This document shows positions 1-4,950 of a stretch of 5,876 nucleotides of DNA, in pieces. This stretch comes from a virus (lineage: Duplodnaviria > Heunggongvirae > Uroviricota > Caudoviricetes). Each line of letters opens with the position of its first letter. Position 1 is the first letter of the stretch. The notes under the pieces were generated by a model. The model saw nothing but the letters and a program-made list of their open reading frames with translations, searched no databases and was not told the DNA's origin. The translations under genes were made by a program, and so were the position numbers. The stretch is from the IMG/VR virus record IMGVR_UViG_3300028481_000068, one strand, 5' to 3'.

Positions 1-480
1 ATCCTGCTCCCACAATGGAGAGTTACGCACTCCGGCTTGCGCCATACTGATGGTAAGCTCACGGGGTTCTGCTTCTCCTTTAAGAACTGCTGACACAGTT
101 ACCGTCAGATTCGGTGATTTATCTGTTTTTCCGTTAACATTCGACCAGTCACCGCTCCAGCGATAATTCAGGCGTGTCGCTAGCAGGATGGAAGAGGATA
201 CGACCGCGTTTACCAACTGTGCTTCGTAGCCTAACGTTCCGTTTACCACATGCGTTTTCTGCGCCACGGCGAAAGGGTTCATTCCCCATTGTGCCGCCTG
301 CATGGTCACCGCCAGACAATCGGCAGGTTTGCCTTCAAGATGTTTCGGTACAGTCGCTTTGCTTTGTGACATCAACTCCGCGAAACGCACCAGTTGATTC
401 ATGCCCTCCGGGCTGAAGATTGCCGCAGCAGTACCTACAGTTGCGCTTGGTTGTGATGTGATTGCGATATCATTGCTCAT
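1..480 (-). CDS. RecT/Redbeta-family single-strand annealing protein, N-terminal 160 codons only (C-terminus lies beyond the window start)
   Basis: Minus-strand frame from ATG at 480-478 is open to position 1; it is absent from the ORF track only because it has no stop in the window. My translation: MSNDIAITSQPSATVGTAAAIFSPEGMNQLVRFAELMSQSKATVPKHLEGKPADCLAVTMQAAQWGMNPFAVAQKTHVVNGTLGYEAQLVN... The AAQWGMNP segment resembles the ANQYGLNP core of lambda Bet as I recall it (not searched). The start ATG overlaps the TGA stop of the upstream exonuclease gene (ATGA). Confidence 0.6.
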   Translation of the reverse strand, partial: MSNDIAITSQPSATVGTAAAIFSPEGMNQLVRFAELMSQSKATVPKHLEGKPADCLAVTMQAAQWGMNPFAVAQKTHVVNGTLGYEAQLVNAVVSSSILLATRLNYRWSGDWSNVNGKTDKSPNLTVTVSAVLKGEAEPRELTISMAQAGVRNSPLWEQD

Positions 481-1298
481 ACGTACATATCCTGTTTACG
501 TGCCCAGTCAGGGCGTTTAATAATTTCCACGCCGCCCCATTCATCATTGATGCGGCATTCGTGATAGGTATTCAGATCCCGGCGGAACAGAGCGTGCCCG
601 GCATCGACATCCGGCGCATCAAGCTCGAACACGCGTACCGGATACCGACCACAATCAATGCTTTCGCTCACGGCAAGAAAGAAAAAACCATGCGGCTGAC
701 CAGTAACCCTCATTGCGCCTTCGCGGTACATTGCGTCCTGCACGTGGTAGCGGAATTCCTCGATGTGGCGTGCAAAACGGTCCATATCTGCAACCTTTTT
801 CACGTCGACGATCACGTTGTGCTCGTTCAGCCATTTGTCTGGACGAATTCGGCACAACTCACCCGTCTCTTCATCGTTCCAGTACATTGATGCTTCGCAG
901 TAACCAGGTGCTTCCAACATCCAGCGTGCCGCCGGATGAGCCATTGCGCTATCACGCATCAGCTCCAGTTTCCGCCACTGCTCGGCATCAAGTACCGTAA
1001 TCCCCATATCCGCCACATCACGAAGAAATGCCTCTTCGTCAGCTTTACCTTGTTTCGTCCGACGATCGAATTTCGGTGAAACAATGAAGCGTTTGTCGAA
1101 CTCTCCAGGCTCCAGAAGCAGACAGTGCAATGCGGTTCCCATATCCAGTGCAGACTTTTTCTCTTCGTCTTCTGGTGCTGCCTGAACCCATTTAAGAAGC
1201 GCCGGATTCTTGGCAACCATGTCCAGTTGCGACTTACTCACGCCGTCACCGGCGTGGTAGTCTTCGTTGCTGATGTCGAAATAAATTCCCGGTTTCAT
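477..1298 (-). CDS. PD-(D/E)XK-family exonuclease (RecE C-terminal domain-like / exodeoxyribonuclease VIII-like), 273 aa
   Basis: ORF-track protein MKPGIYFDISNEDYHAG... contains RIRPD ... VIVDVKKV, which fits a PD-x(n)-(D/E)-x-K nuclease motif. SD GAGGGA lies 6 nt upstream of ATG 1298. It sits directly upstream of, and is translationally coupled to, the annealase gene, the usual exonuclease/annealase pairing. Family assignment is from memory. Confidence 0.7.
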   Translation of the reverse strand: MKPGIYFDISNEDYHAGDGVSKSQLDMVAKNPALLKWVQAAPEDEEKKSALDMGTALHCLLLEPGEFDKRFIVSPKFDRRTKQGKADEEAFLRDVADMGITVLDAEQWRKLELMRDSAMAHPAARWMLEAPGYCEASMYWNDEETGELCRIRPDKWLNEHNVIVDVKKVADMDRFARHIEEFRYHVQDAMYREGAMRVTGQPHGFFFLAVSESIDCGRYPVRVFELDAPDVDAGHALFRRDLNTYHECRINDEWGGVEIIKRPDWARKQDMYV

Positions 1299-1594
1299 GC
1301 CGCGTCCCTCTGTCCATCAAGCTGATCCGCAAGATCCCAGCGGGCGATAATTGCCATTGCCTCTCGCCGATAGGCATCCATCAGTTCTTCGAACTCAGGG
1401 CTGTCTTTAGCAGCCTCCAGTACTTCCTGACGAACGCCTTTGCCTGTTACAACGTCGAAAGTTGAGGACAGTTGATGAAGTCGGATACTCTCAATCAGTT
1501 CAACTTGTCGGTCATATAGCTGTTCTGACAGGCGGTAGTCCTTGTCGAATGCCAGCATGATTTTTTGAAGATTTTTCTGCTGATTAACGTTCAT
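1295..1594 (-). CDS. Hypothetical small protein, 99 aa, in the recombination operon
   Basis: ORF-track frame 1295..1609. I prefer the internal ATG at 1594 (protein MNVNQQKNLQKIM...) because GGAGGG lies 6 nt upstream of it. The TGA stop overlaps the exonuclease ATG (ATGA). No family recognised. Confidence 0.5.
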   Translation of the reverse strand: MNVNQQKNLQKIMLAFDKDYRLSEQLYDRQVELIESIRLHQLSSTFDVVTGKGVRQEVLEAAKDSPEFEELMDAYRREAMAIIARWDLADQLDGQRDAA

Positions 1595-1596
1595 TA

Positions 1597-1749
1597 TCAG
1601 CCCTCCCATATCTCGTTATCGTTGGCCACATCGCGAGCTTCTTTGCTGACGAAAGCCCACTTAATGCCTTCCTGTAAGGTGCGGAACTTCCAGCTCATGA
1701 ATCCGCATGCAGTAACGCAGTACCAACCGTTGATGATTTTCCACTGCAT
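1597..1749 (-). CDS. Hypothetical 50-aa protein, first ORF of the leftward early operon (not in the ORF track)
   Basis: Minus-strand ATG at 1749-1747 through TGA at 1599-1597. My translation: MQWKIINGWYCVTACGFMSWKFRTLQEGIKWAFVSKEARDVANDNEIWEG. GAGGT lies about 9 nt upstream. The stop is 2 nt before the next start (TGATAATG). It is the first ORF downstream of the predicted leftward promoter. Short, so coding status is uncertain. Confidence 0.35.
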   Translation of the reverse strand: MQWKIINGWYCVTACGFMSWKFRTLQEGIKWAFVSKEARDVANDNEIWEG

Positions 1750-1768
1750 AACTTGTTACCTCGGTCTG

Positions 1769-1783
1769 TTACCGTTGAGGTAA
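1769..1783. promoter_or_regulatory. Operator-like dyad TTACC-GTTGA-GGTAA, abutting the -10 of the leftward early promoter
   Basis: Perfect 5+5 inverted-repeat half-sites with a 5-bp spacer. Member of an eight-copy family confined to intergenic regions. Confidence 0.6.
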
Positions 1784-1830: not shown

Positions 1831-1845
1831 TTACCCGTTAGGTAA
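1831..1845. promoter_or_regulatory. Operator-like dyad TTACC-CGTTA-GGTAA, upstream of the leftward promoter
   Basis: Perfect half-sites. Centre-to-centre distance to site 1769-1783 is 62 bp. Confidence 0.6.
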
Positions 1846-1855
1846 TCGAATAGGC

Positions 1856-1880
1856 AATAAAAAAGCCGCCATAAGGCGGC
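1856..1880 (-). terminator. Rho-independent terminator at the end of the repressor gene
   Basis: On the minus strand: GCCGCC-TTAT-GGCGGC hairpin (1880-1865) followed by TTTTTTATT. The plus-strand reading lacks a T-tract, so it is probably unidirectional. Confidence 0.6.
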
Positions 1881-1902
1881 TTACTTACTGAAAAATATGG
1901 TT

Positions 1903-2487
1903 TTATTGTTTGTTTTTTTCGTTTTGGTTGATGACAAATTCAATGTAACTTTCGATCTTTGCTTTCTCGGTTTCGGGTAACAATGCGTAGCGCGAGCGAT
2001 CATAGTTGATGGTCGCAGGGTCGTGCGGGTGAATCAGTAATTCATAGCCGTGACGCCCGAATGCGGATGCAACATTCTCCAGGGTGGAAATGGAAACGCT
2101 GACCTCATTGTTTAACAGGCGGCTGATTGTCACCTGGGCGACGCCGGATGCGCGGTGTAGTTTTCCCTGCGTTGAAAGGTCGCGGCTTTCGCTCATCCAG
2201 CGTTCCAGGTTGTGAGCCGCCAGCTGACCAATGTCGCTTGGTCCGACAGGCTGAAAACCTTCCTGAGAAAGCGAGCGATCGATATCAAGCCAGTTACGGG
2301 GTTTATTGGCGGCAGCTTCAATTTTTCGCGCAACCTGGTCGCCGATAACCTTCTTGCCAAGAGCCCAGCGGTTTACCAGATTTGCCTGAGTTCCAAGTTT
2401 TTCTGCCATCCGCGTCTGAACACCATTGAATTCACGGTCGATCAAGTCGTTGAGATTTTGCCTGCGGACGTCCTGGATACTTTTCAT
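1903..2487 (-). CDS. Phage repressor-like DNA-binding protein with two XRE-type HTH segments and no recognisable LexA/S24-type autocleavage domain, 194 aa
   Basis: ORF-track protein. HTH-like segments QTRMAEKLGTQANLVNRW and GVAQVTISRLLNNEVSVSISTLENVASAF. I see no Ser/Lys peptidase-like C-terminal domain. It is divergent from the Cro-like gene, with shared operators in the 154-bp intergenic region. Confidence 0.7.
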   Translation of the reverse strand: MKSIQDVRRQNLNDLIDREFNGVQTRMAEKLGTQANLVNRWALGKKVIGDQVARKIEAAANKPRNWLDIDRSLSQEGFQPVGPSDIGQLAAHNLERWMSESRDLSTQGKLHRASGVAQVTISRLLNNEVSVSISTLENVASAFGRHGYELLIHPHDPATINYDRSRYALLPETEKAKIESYIEFVINQNEKNKQ

Positions 2488-2542: not shown

Positions 2543-2557
2543 TTACCCAACAGGTAA
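2543..2557. promoter_or_regulatory. Operator-like dyad TTACC-CAACA-GGTAA in the divergent immunity region
   Basis: Perfect half-sites, between the repressor start (2487) and the Cro-like start (2642). Confidence 0.6.
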
Positions 2558-2559
2558 AT

Positions 2560-2574
2560 GCACCCCATAGGTAA
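2560..2574. promoter_or_regulatory. Degenerate operator-like site GCACC-CCATA-GGTAA
   Basis: 8 of 10 half-site positions match. Lies 3 bp from site 2543-2557, resembling a weak third operator in a tripartite array. Confidence 0.3.
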
Positions 2575-2587
2575 CTATCCTTGATTT

Positions 2588-2616
2588 TTGTTACCTTATG
2601 GGTGAATATTTATTAT
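2588..2616 (+). promoter_or_regulatory. Putative rightward early promoter (PR-like): -35 TTGTTA, 17-bp spacer, -10 TATTAT
   Basis: Hexamers at 2588-2593 and 2611-2616, by eye. An alternative pairing is TTGATT at 2581-2586 with GAATAT at 2604-2609. Drives the Cro-like gene. Confidence 0.35.
2591..2605. promoter_or_regulatory. Operator-like site TTACC-TTATG-GGTGA inside the rightward promoter
   Basis: 9 of 10 half-site positions match. Lies within the predicted spacer of the PR-like promoter. Confidence 0.5.
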
Positions 2617-2641: not shown

Positions 2642-2872
2642 ATGAGCGATAACGGACATTTCGATTTCAAAAAGCACTGGCTTGCACTTACTCCGGATGA
2701 GCGTGAAGCCTTCGCACAGGAAGCCGGAACGACGAGTCACTATATCCAGACTCACTTAACAGGTAAGCGCAAAATGCCAGGTAAGGTATTGATGAATGGG
2801 CTTTTTAAAGCCTGTAAAACAAGACAATGGCTGCGCTCAAAAGCAGAACTGGCATACTTCTTCTACTCATGA
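2642..2872 (+). CDS. Cro-like small HTH DNA-binding protein, 76 aa
   Basis: ORF-track protein MSDNGHFDFKKHWLALTPDEREAFAQEAGTTSHYIQTHLTGKRK... Divergent from the repressor across the operator region and followed by an intrinsic terminator. Called Cro-like from size, position and a putative HTH; family not verified. Confidence 0.55.
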   Translation: MSDNGHFDFKKHWLALTPDEREAFAQEAGTTSHYIQTHLTGKRKMPGKVLMNGLFKACKTRQWLRSKAELAYFFYS

Positions 2873-2927: not shown

Positions 2928-2942
2928 GTACCTCAAAGGTAA
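2928..2942. promoter_or_regulatory. Operator-like site GTACC-TCAAA-GGTAA just after the Cro terminator
   Basis: 9 of 10 half-site positions match. Lies 17 bp upstream of a possible -35 TTGATC (2960-2965), which has a weak candidate -10 CAAAAT (2983-2988). Confidence 0.35.
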
Positions 2943-3238: not shown

Positions 3239-4054
3239 ATGAGCAGACATGCAACAGATTGGGCCTGGGAGACAGATCCAGGCAGCTCATCATTAAAGCT
3301 CATACTGCTCTCGATGGCTGACAGAGCCGATGAATATAACCTCTGCTACCCCAGCATAGAACGCCTCGTTAAAGACACTTGTCTGAATAAAAAAACCGTG
3401 CAGGCCGGACTTATATCGCTCATGAAAATGGGGCTTATTTCAGATACCGGAGAGAGAAAGGGAGCGACGAAAAGAGTGCGGGTTTTCTCTCTTAATATAA
3501 CCAAAAAAGGGAACATTAAAGGCAACCTAGAAGGACGTAATGAACCCGAAAACGGTAATGTTCCCGAAAACGGGAATATACCCAAAAACGGGATGTTGAA
3601 TGATCCCAAAAACGGGATGTTGAATGATCCCAAAAACGGGATCCAGAACCAGTCATATAACCAGTCATTTAACCAAGAGAGGGAGAGCAGGACAAAAACC
3701 GGGGATTCTGTGCCTCATGACCCCGGCGCAAACAACGCCGTGATGAATAACTTTGTTCCTCCTGGTGGGCCAGGGCAATTAGGCAAATTTGTCATGCATG
3801 AACAATGGCAGCCATCAGATGACTTTCTTCGGAAAAGCTCATTGCAGGGGATCTACCTGGACAGTATGCCAACGGCACAGGAACTTGCAGAGTTCAGAAT
3901 TTACTGGATGGCTGAGGGTAAGGCATACCATCAGGCACAGTGGGAGCAGAAGCTGGCAAGGCGGCTGCAGATTAGCAGACAGAAGCAATCAACATTACCT
4001 GATAACAACGTTCCGCACTGGAACAGCCCTGAAGCATGGGAGGATTTCTTGTGA
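3239..4054 (+). CDS. Replication initiator, lambda O-like: N-terminal HTH origin-binding domain, repetitive linker, C-terminal domain of the DnaT/O type; 271 aa
   Basis: ORF-track protein. SD GGAG lies 7 nt upstream of the ATG. The linker NGNVPENGNIPKNGMLNDPKNGMLNDPKNG is encoded by the iteron array, as with ori inside lambda O. It lies immediately upstream of, and overlaps, the P-like gene. Domain names are from memory. Confidence 0.75.
   Translation: MSRHATDWAWETDPGSSSLKLILLSMADRADEYNLCYPSIERLVKDTCLNKKTVQAGLISLMKMGLISDTGERKGATKRVRVFSLNITKKGNIKGNLEGRNEPENGNVPENGNIPKNGMLNDPKNGMLNDPKNGIQNQSYNQSFNQERESRTKTGDSVPHDPGANNAVMNNFVPPGGPGQLGKFVMHEQWQPSDDFLRKSSLQGIYLDSMPTAQELAEFRIYWMAEGKAYHQAQWEQKLARRLQISRQKQSTLPDNNVPHWNSPEAWEDFL
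3545..3645. repeat. Iteron array: five direct repeats of core CCC(G/A)AAAACGG(G/T)A at 18-, 18-, 24- and 24-bp spacing; putative origin of replication
   Basis: Copies start at 3545, 3563, 3581, 3605 and 3629. Copies 3 and 4 are identical over 24 bp. Each core carries a CCCG/CGGG dyad around an A-tract. Followed by the tandem AACCAGTCAT(A/T)T x2 (3647-3670). Located inside the O-like coding sequence. Confidence 0.75.
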
Positions 4055-4873: not shown

Positions 4874-4888
4874 TTACCTGTTGGGTAA
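4874..4888. promoter_or_regulatory. Operator-like dyad TTACC-TGTTG-GGTAA, upstream of the third promoter
   Basis: Perfect half-sites, 19 bp upstream of the -35 TTGATT. Confidence 0.6.
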
Positions 4889-4907: not shown

Positions 4908-4936
4908 TTGATTTCGTGTCTTATGTGGTTTTTAAT
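4908..4936 (+). promoter_or_regulatory. Putative rightward promoter downstream of the replication module: -35 TTGATT, 17-bp spacer, -10 TTTAAT
   Basis: Hexamers at 4908-4913 and 4931-4936, flanked by operator sites at 4874-4888 and 4936-4950. The spacing is identical to the pL-like module (operator, 19 bp, -35, 17 bp, -10 overlapping the second operator by 1 nt). Confidence 0.45.
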
Positions 4937-4950
4937 TACCTCAGGGGTAA
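4936..4950. promoter_or_regulatory. Operator-like dyad TTACC-TCAGG-GGTAA overlapping the -10 and the 5' leader of ORF 4954
   Basis: Perfect half-sites, ending 3 nt before ATG 4954. Confidence 0.6.

Follow-up and report, generated by a model that had tools for sequence, protein, structure and literature searches.

A phiV10-type immunity repressor without an autocleavage domain and its probable place in the SPC32H Rep/Ant antirepression system

How can a temperate phage be induced when its immunity repressor has no domain for self-cleavage? The question is raised by an open reading frame in the 5,876-nucleotide stretch of phage DNA analyzed here (the window), which begins with an ATG on the minus strand, occupies positions 1903..2487 and encodes an immunity repressor (Rep) of 194 aa plus the stop codon. 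A sequence-only reading of this DNA had described a protein with two XRE-like helix-turn-helix (HTH) segments, a short tail and no autocleavage domain, and had placed any antirepressor gene beyond the window. Our analyses indicate that the ORF is very probably the Rep of a phiV10/epsilon15-type (Uetakevirus) podophage, belonging to the Rep/Ant antirepression system of SPC32H and switched by a LexA-controlled antirepressor gene, ant.

The repressor, its phage and the missing autocleavage domain

The window corresponds to the early/immunity region of a phiV10/epsilon15-type temperate podophage of the genus Uetakevirus. It is 98.2% identical to Escherichia phage vB_EcoP_PAS61 across 96% of its length and 96.5% identical to phiV10, and the 1.2-kb rep locus was present in 541 of 5426 complete E. 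coli genomes, with three plasmid places. At the left end of the window lies the 3' part only of recT, followed by the gene for a PD-(D/E)XK RecE-like exonuclease (477..1298, minus strand) and by two small genes. An intrinsic-terminator-like hairpin with a T-run (1863..1882, minus strand) lies directly downstream of rep, as it does in the annotation of phiV10. Divergent from rep, the rightward operon opens with a 76-aa regulator in the Cro/CII position (2642..2872, plus strand; phrog_35, "transcriptional repressor"). It is separated by a terminator-like hairpin (2894-2913) from the second gene, of 66 aa, beyond which stand a DnaT/O-like initiator gene, a lambda-P-like loader gene and a DUF1064 resolvase-like gene, in that order.

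Rep is 100% identical to phiV10 p40, vB_EcoP_ZX5 ORF21 and the PAS61 repressor, and an identical Rep is also found in phiv142-3 and in O157 typing phages 9 and 10. It has thus been described before, as the immunity repressor of E. coli prophages of the phiV10/epsilon15 type. The RefSeq note to phiV10 p40 mentions [quoted passage not shown], and overexpression of ZX5 ORF21 left no free phage and lowered the transcripts of lysin (endolysin) and holin by ~99.99% (PMC9782041).

Comparison with solved structures assigned Rep to a family. By phmmer it matched PDB entry 5D50_A ("Repressor", 199 aa) across residues 1-190 (E=4e-42, 42% identity) and 5D4Z, which holds the C-terminal two-thirds of a repressor (Rep 92-198), across residues 89-190 (E=4e-20). 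The entries 5D4Z and 5D50 are the Rep structures of Salmonella phage SPC32H, alone and with the antirepressor Ant. An AlphaFold2 model of Rep, built with 27 family members and having a mean pLDDT of 77.6, had the same two entries as its top Foldseek matches (5D50 at 1.5e-10; 5D4Z with a target TM of 0.73), and these PDB matches are titled "Rep-Ant complex from Salmonella-temperate phage". The genome record of SPC32H is that of a Uetakevirus with the gene order of the window's phage type, in which both rep and ant are annotated.

The two XRE-like HTH segments described earlier were borne out, at approximately residues 20-60 and 105-150: Pfam placed HTH_3 on Rep in two stretches (E=1.2e-9, the best at 106-147) and a Cro/YdaS-type HTH at 21-61. 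The model was all-helical. Its N-terminal bundle of four helices (4-19, 24-31, 35-43 and 50-59) is connected through a disordered linker (74-83) to a second bundle, of five helices (83-151), after which comes a helical tail (164-193). The two HTH halves gave no BLASTP alignment with one another at E<=100, and internal duplication as their origin was rejected for want of detectable mutual similarity. According to a secondary source (PMC9986798), SPC32H Rep consists of an N-terminal DNA-binding domain (DBD), a middle dimerization domain (MDD) and a C-terminal domain (CAD, "TetDloop") that both tetramerizes and binds the antirepressor. Rep can be divided in the same way. Residues 1-70 (2278..2487, minus strand) form the N-terminal HTH domain, whose role in DNA binding is assigned by homology to SPC32H Rep, and residues 71-88 (2224..2277, minus strand) form a flexible linker with pLDDT values below 50 at 74-83, indels within the family and 22% identity to SPC32H Rep. 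Residues 89-152 (2032..2223, minus strand) form the second, HTH_3-like domain, which is homologous to the MDD. The C-terminal tail (residues 153-194; 1906..2031, minus strand) is homologous to the CAD; the short tail of the earlier description is thus real, but it is not featureless, aligning as it does with the tetramerization and Ant-binding domain of SPC32H Rep.

Identity between the two repressors was uneven, at 54% in the N-terminal domain, 34% in the middle domain and 43% in the tail. Within the predicted recognition helix, ANLVNRW, residues N36, R40 and W41 are invariant in the family, and NLVNRW is identical in Rep and SPC32H Rep despite an overall identity of 42%. Because that overall value is just 42% (C-terminal 43%, middle 34%), the details of oligomerization and Ant binding are extrapolated from SPC32H, and statements on Rep-Ant binding and on the oligomeric states of Rep are to be taken as what the homolog and its literature would predict.

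The absence of an autocleavage domain could be followed through several independent searches. A profile comparison of Peptidase_S24 with HTH families, proposed in the sequence-only reading, returned HTH only, with no PF00717 in the Pfam search. NCBIfam and PHROG searches of Rep for an S24 or autocleavage domain were likewise negative, the NCBIfam matches all being sub-threshold (RstR, for example, reached 19.7 bits where 80 are required). By their Pfam labels, all 86 database homologs, drawn from a collection of 5.8 billion proteins, were without an S24 domain. The Rep translation has no Cys and neither an Ala-Gly (AG) nor a Cys-Gly (CG) dipeptide, and hence nothing that could serve as the canonical LexA/CI cleavage site. 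No beta-rich C-terminal fold was seen in the AlphaFold2 model, and Foldseek against the PDB gave no LexA/S24-type fold for it, its matches being confined to small HTH proteins of XRE type and to the structures of SPC32H Rep. Together, the Pfam search, the homolog labels, the model and the Foldseek matches upheld the claim that this repressor lacks an autocleavage domain, and membership of Rep in the S24 class of lambda CI and LexA was ruled out, since Rep shows neither the domain itself nor a cleavage site nor a C-terminal fold rich in beta strands. Kim and Ryu reportedly found in 2013 that SPC32H Rep stays uncleaved, and by analogy the Rep of the window would also remain uncleaved during SOS induction.

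LexA boxes and the antirepressor gene

The window had been said to hold no LexA box, and we found no exact CTGT-N8-ACAG in its 5,876 nt. Matches with one mismatch lay within genes or overlapped a putative Rep operator. A scan of the window with a LexA position-weight matrix gave nothing at or above 10 bits; this matrix, for which 26 E. coli boxes served as the source, is approximate, and the boxes themselves score 12.9-27 bits on it. The window's only intergenic CTG-N10-CAG, at 2617-2632, was rejected as a LexA box, as it scored 0.7 bits and had no counterpart in SPC32H.

The earlier suggestion that the antirepressor gene lies beyond the window was supported by the relatives with identical Rep, which carry a LexA-boxed ant outside the immunity region. 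A search for a small gene behind a LexA box, proposed earlier for the rest of the prophage and made here in these relatives, found ant and its box in all four complete genomes. In phiV10 the gene is p24 (85 aa; 20543..20800, minus strand), which matches 5D50_E, "Anti-repressor protein", at E=2.9e-46; on the map of phiV10, ~12 kb separate it from rep. The Ant orthologs of phiV10, ZX5, PAS61 and the E. coli 2824 prophage, which sits at guaA, are 86-87% identical to SPC32H Ant, and all four accompany an identical Rep. An exact CTGT-N8-ACAG stands ~22 bp upstream of the ant ATG in these four genomes and in SPC32H, the phiV10 box being TACTGTGTATTTATACAGTT, ~22 bp before the p24 ATG. In the three genomes scanned (phiV10, ZX5 and SPC32H), the ant boxes scored 25-28 bits, as compared with 12.9-27 for known E. 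coli boxes. The window itself carries no ant; from the relatives with identical Rep, its own phage would be expected to have the gene elsewhere. With ant under LexA control, Rep would need no self-cleavage domain.

Among complete E. coli genomes, the ant segment was found in 529 and the rep segment in 541, counts that are compared as totals, with three plasmid places each. The ant gene of phiV10, ZX5 and SPC32H stands alone, with virion genes on one side and the tailspike gene on the other, and the annotation shows no dinI beside it. Ant belongs to phrog_450, described in PHROG as "unknown function", and has no Pfam family. In the E. coli phage and prophage records examined, ant was labeled "hypothetical protein", and in PAS61 its annotated start is too far upstream, so that the ORF swallows the LexA box. 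Other exact CTGT-N8-ACAG sites common to phiV10, PAS61 and ZX5 (e.g., phiV10 2722 and 7264) scored at most 10.2 bits. These conserved sites fall below all the known boxes, and are therefore probably not LexA sites.

A second candidate for the inducer had to be considered, since the ZX5 study credits antirepression to the Bro-N protein (ZX5 ORF4, phiV10 p23), overexpression of ORF4 having cut lysogen titers ~1000-fold (PMC9782041). Our own comparisons also connected this protein with Ant, as residues 152-223 of ORF4 (its C-terminal 72) were 44% identical to Ant (E=5e-16) and matched phrog_450, the PHROG to which Ant belongs (E=4e-36). However, the Bro-N gene is frameshifted in phiV10 and absent from SPC32H, no LexA box was seen ahead of it, and the small Ant was intact and highly conserved in every genome examined. 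Based on these observations, we regard it as unlikely, though deserving of mention, that the Bro-N protein is the effective inducer, whether instead of or besides the small LexA-controlled Ant.

Operator-like palindromes and the second HTH-like domain

The 15-bp palindrome TTACC-N5-GGTAA had 10 matches in the window at two or fewer mismatches, where 1.55 would be expected and none of 200 shuffles gave more than 6, and eight of the 10 were clearly intergenic. Several occupy the early promoter regions. On the left (OL region), a leftward promoter-like site (-35 at 1811-1806, -10 at 1788-1783) is flanked by TTACCGTTGAGGTAA (1769..1783), which adjoins the -10, and TTACCCGTTAGGTAA (1831..1845), upstream of the -35. 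On the right (OR region), the rightward promoter-like site has its -35 at 2588-2593 and its -10 at 2611-2616, and three palindromes lie between rep and the rightward gene: TTACCCAACAGGTAA (2543..2557); GCACCCCATAGGTAA (2560..2574), whose left half is imperfect and which lies 17 bp from the site at 2543; and TTACCTTATGGGTGA (2591..2605), inside the promoter spacer. Further palindromes were GTACCTCAAAGGTAA (2928..2942), after the hairpin at 2894-2913 and before the 66-aa gene, TTACCTGTTGGGTAA (4874..4888), between the P-like gene and the DUF1064 gene, and TTACCTCAGGGGTAA (4936..4950), 4 bp upstream of the start of the DUF1064 gene.

In a de novo census, TTACC-N5-GGTAA was the commonest 5-N-5 palindrome in phiV10 (8 exact) and in SPC32H (10 exact), and the three-site OR layout was common to both phage types, with spacings of 17 and 31 bp in the window and 17 and 30 bp in SPC32H. 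Based on the position of these sites and on the palindrome preference reported for its homolog, Rep is the presumptive binder. The shared core is consistent with the identical recognition helix; being the same in phiV10- and SPC32H-type phages, it neither proves nor disproves Rep as the binder, and since one core occurs in two phages with differing Reps, some of them could be targets of a different conserved protein.

The palindromes also bear on what the second HTH-like domain does. It had been suggested that the two HTH units of a single chain might contact two half-sites or two operators at once, and some features of the protein would suit such an arrangement, in which both HTH-like domains of one Rep chain touch DNA at two half-sites or bridge operators. 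The best Pfam HTH_3 match is in the second domain (106-147), and Q118 and R123, in what would be its recognition helix, are invariant in 27 family members. Against this, in the crystallized homolog the N-terminal domain alone is described as DNA-binding and the second HTH-like domain dimerizes (PMC9986798, PMC9638917), and Pfam HTH_3 falls on the same middle domain in SPC32H Rep itself (109-150). The two HTH halves are also without detectable sequence similarity. The sites themselves are plain 15-bp palindromes, and their symmetry suits one reading head per half-site. A search in three genomes for a conserved flanking element beside the operator-like sites, as a target for the second HTH, found none, information content being at background directly outside the 15-17-bp palindrome. 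In the SPC32H model, contact with several sites is achieved by tetramerization and not by tandem HTHs. The suggestion was not supported by these results, and we consider it highly improbable; the invariance of Q118 and R123 is the reason for leaving a small probability that the second domain touches nucleic acid. We continue to read that domain as the probable counterpart of the MDD.

Operator-like palindromes were observed to be spread across the whole phage genome in phiV10, ZX5 and SPC32H. In these three phages they precede nearly every transcription unit (terminase, head, the tailspike/ant divergent region, lysis, integrase and nin-like), and one lies between ant and the Bro-N-fused paralog of Ant. 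We speculate, with considerable doubt, that Rep controls far more than the two early promoters, as a genome-wide silencer that possibly loops DNA through its tetramerization domain, and that the Bro-N::Ant fusion, repressed by Rep and not by LexA, is a positive-feedback latch. If Rep does bind all of these sites, such a latch would make induction irreversible once the LexA-controlled Ant had fired.

The proposed switch among known systems

The Rep/Ant switch of epsilon15-like podophages was reportedly described genetically in 2013 (by Kim and Ryu, in J Virol) and structurally in 2016 (by Kim et al., in PNAS). Applied to the phage of the window, it would work as follows. The palindromes TTACC-N5-GGTAA, which overlap both early promoters (leftward and rightward), would be read by the N-terminal HTH domain of Rep, the second HTH-like domain would join two chains into a dimer, and the C-terminal tail would couple two dimers into a DNA-binding tetramer. 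During the SOS response Rep would remain intact, and the cleavage of LexA would derepress ant (85 aa), outside the window. Tetrameric Ant would then grip the C-terminal domains of two Rep dimers, so that the tetramer would be broken and Rep would leave the DNA.

For SPC32H, a secondary source (PMC9638917) describes a Rep that binds palindromic sites as a tetramer, with paired DBDs that come from different dimers, and that is freed when tetrameric Ant binds two Rep dimers. A review (PMC7380047, after Kim & Ryu 2013) has LexA cleavage leading to synthesis of the antirepressor. The features of the SPC32H type that can be sought in sequence were all found, namely the homology and architecture of Rep, the absence of S24, a cognate Ant and a LexA box, the last two in relatives. 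The likeness to SPC32H extends to the genus Uetakevirus, the gene order, full-length Rep homology and the three-part architecture (here assigned by homology). It also takes in, from the ant of the relatives, the position of ant, the placement of its LexA box and an Ant that is 86-87% identical, together with the operator core and the three-site OR layout. Besides the Rep identity of only 42%, there are two differences. The inner operator positions in the immunity region of SPC32H are mostly TTACCA...TGGTAA, whereas those of the window are TTACC[C/G/T]..., a difference that may confer another immunity specificity, and SPC32H is without the Bro-N::Ant-like fusion gene that the E. coli phages carry.

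The sequence-only reading had likened Rep to the repressors of Gifsy prophages. Functionally the comparison is apt, as GfoR, GftR and GfhR of Gifsy-1/-2/-3 are non-cleavable and yield to small antirepressors (GfoA, GftA and GfhA) whose genes are controlled directly by LexA and lie away from the immunity region (Lemire et al. 2011, PMC3121763). It probably does not extend to family, this protein belonging with SPC32H Rep/Ant, whereas the Gifsy repressors are, by published description, of the DicA/RacR group. The genetic setting also differs: the Gifsy antirepressor gene follows the replication genes, as part of a dinI-ant-irsA operon that LexA controls, and the Ant discussed here is a different protein whose gene adjoins that of the tailspike.

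Other switches share parts of this plan. In coliphage 186 (CI/Tum) and phage N15 (AntC), a LexA-controlled antirepressor likewise binds the repressor and clears the operator, but the proteins are unrelated, Tum having 146 aa with a DinI-like half. Unlike these, according to the literature (PMC9638917, PMC9986798), Ant of the SPC32H type binds the C-terminal domain of the repressor and does not compete for its DNA-binding surface. The Rco repressor of the Bacillus plasmid pLS20 has, like Rep, an N-terminal XRE-type DBD, a C-terminal strand-helix, p53-like tetramerization module (TetDloop) and an antirepressor partner, and SPC32H Rep is explicitly classed with it in PMC9986798. However, Rco is without the middle HTH-like dimerization domain, and the relationship is structural only. 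With switches of the lambda CI/LexA type the locus has in common a divergent rep/cro-type arrangement and several palindromic operators, here operator-like, at the leftward and rightward early promoters, but the S24 domain, the cleavage site and the beta-rich C-terminal fold of those repressors are all absent from Rep. That Rep is nevertheless inactivated by non-canonical RecA-stimulated or host-protease proteolysis is scarcely credible, given that its fold is all-helical and that it lacks both an S24 domain and any Ala-Gly or Cys-Gly site, that a cognate LexA-boxed Ant is conserved alongside it, and that a review places SPC32H among the prophages induced by a LexA-controlled antirepressor (PMC7380047).

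As a discovery these results carry little weight. The non-cleavable Rep of the SPC32H Rep/Ant system is already known and is largely annotated for the identical protein; the type of switch, the two HTH motifs and the repression of lytic genes in ZX5 have all been described before. Mildly new are the recognition of the true, unannotated ant in E. coli phages, the Ant-like C-terminus of the ZX5 Bro-N "anti-repressor" and the genome-wide distribution of operator-like palindromes. The one experimental paper on an E. coli phage of this kind (ZX5, PMC9782041) credits the Bro-N protein, and the SPC32H-type Ant and its LexA box are unmentioned there. The practical value of the present analysis is one of annotation: this type of prophage is present in ~10% of complete E. 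coli genomes (541/5426), yet in the records examined its real antirepressor gene is still a "hypothetical protein".

Operator-like palindromes outside the immunity region

The TTACC-N5-GGTAA palindromes were found to extend beyond the immunity region, where they stand ahead of nearly every transcription unit. The phiV10 genome has 14 such sites, against 0.65 expected, and those outside its immunity region are at 87, 105, 3252, 20497, 20877, 24692, 26870, 35070 and 35132; in the window such sites lie at 2928, 4874 and 4936. The units preceded by these operator-like palindromes are the terminase, the head module, the divergent region of ant (the antirepressor gene) and the tailspike, the lysis module, the integrase and the DUF1064 gene, and equivalents of the phiV10 palindromes are present in the related phages SPC32H and ZX5. 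Most palindromes outside the immunity region have the form TTACCT-N3-AGGTAA, common to phiV10-type and SPC32H-type phages; the inner positions of the immunity-region palindromes differ between the two types. The palindrome 3' of ant in phiV10 is the centre of a far longer perfect inverted repeat (20480-20528, GGAGTGCTTATATTTACC ... GGTAAATATAAGCACTCC), which could be a hairpin or terminator, either instead of or besides an operator.

Antirepressor genes and LexA-box-like matches

For ZX5, phiV10 and the E. coli 2824 prophage, the annotation calls the ant product a "hypothetical protein". In PAS61 the annotated CDS (32710..33090, minus strand, 126 aa) begins too early, ahead of the LexA box; the true ant ORF is 32713..32967, encoding 85 aa with 86% identity to SPC32H Ant. 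The Bro-N "anti-repressor" of ZX5 (1078..1773, minus strand), the protein overexpressed in the ZX5 paper (PMC9782041), is, as judged by homology, a Bro-N::Ant-like fusion and thus a second Ant paralogue, because its C-terminal domain (residues 152-223) shares 44% identity with SPC32H-type Ant, the small antirepressor (blastp E=5e-16), and likewise matches phrog_450 (E=4e-36). Its phiV10 counterpart (19551..20230, minus strand) is split into p23 plus p22 by a frameshift after approximately residue 180, and the gene is absent from SPC32H.

Two more exact CTGT-N8-ACAG matches, at phiV10 2722 and 7264, are kept in PAS61 and ZX5. Their spacers are G+C-rich. On our LexA weight matrix they scored low (10.2 and <10 bits, respectively), and they are therefore probably not functional LexA boxes.

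The repressor and the replication and recombination genes

In NCBIfam, residues 106-192 of Rep, the immunity repressor (its middle and C-terminal part, window 1906-2226), matched RstR, a family of CTXphi-type repressors, but weakly and below threshold (E=7.7e-4; 19.7 bits, with the cut-off at 80). In the window, recT and the RecE-like exonuclease gene are predicted to be separate genes because the recT start overlaps the exonuclease stop (ATGA, 477-480, minus strand), whereas the phiV10 record has a single RecE-RecT fusion CDS. Within the DnaT/O-like replication-initiator gene there are six direct repeats (window 3493-3645; core CCC[G/A]AAAACGG, 18-24-nt spacing) and an additional 12-nt tandem pair (3647-3670). 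The six repeats are iteron-like, and their position inside the initiator gene resembles that of the lambda origin, which is located within gene O.
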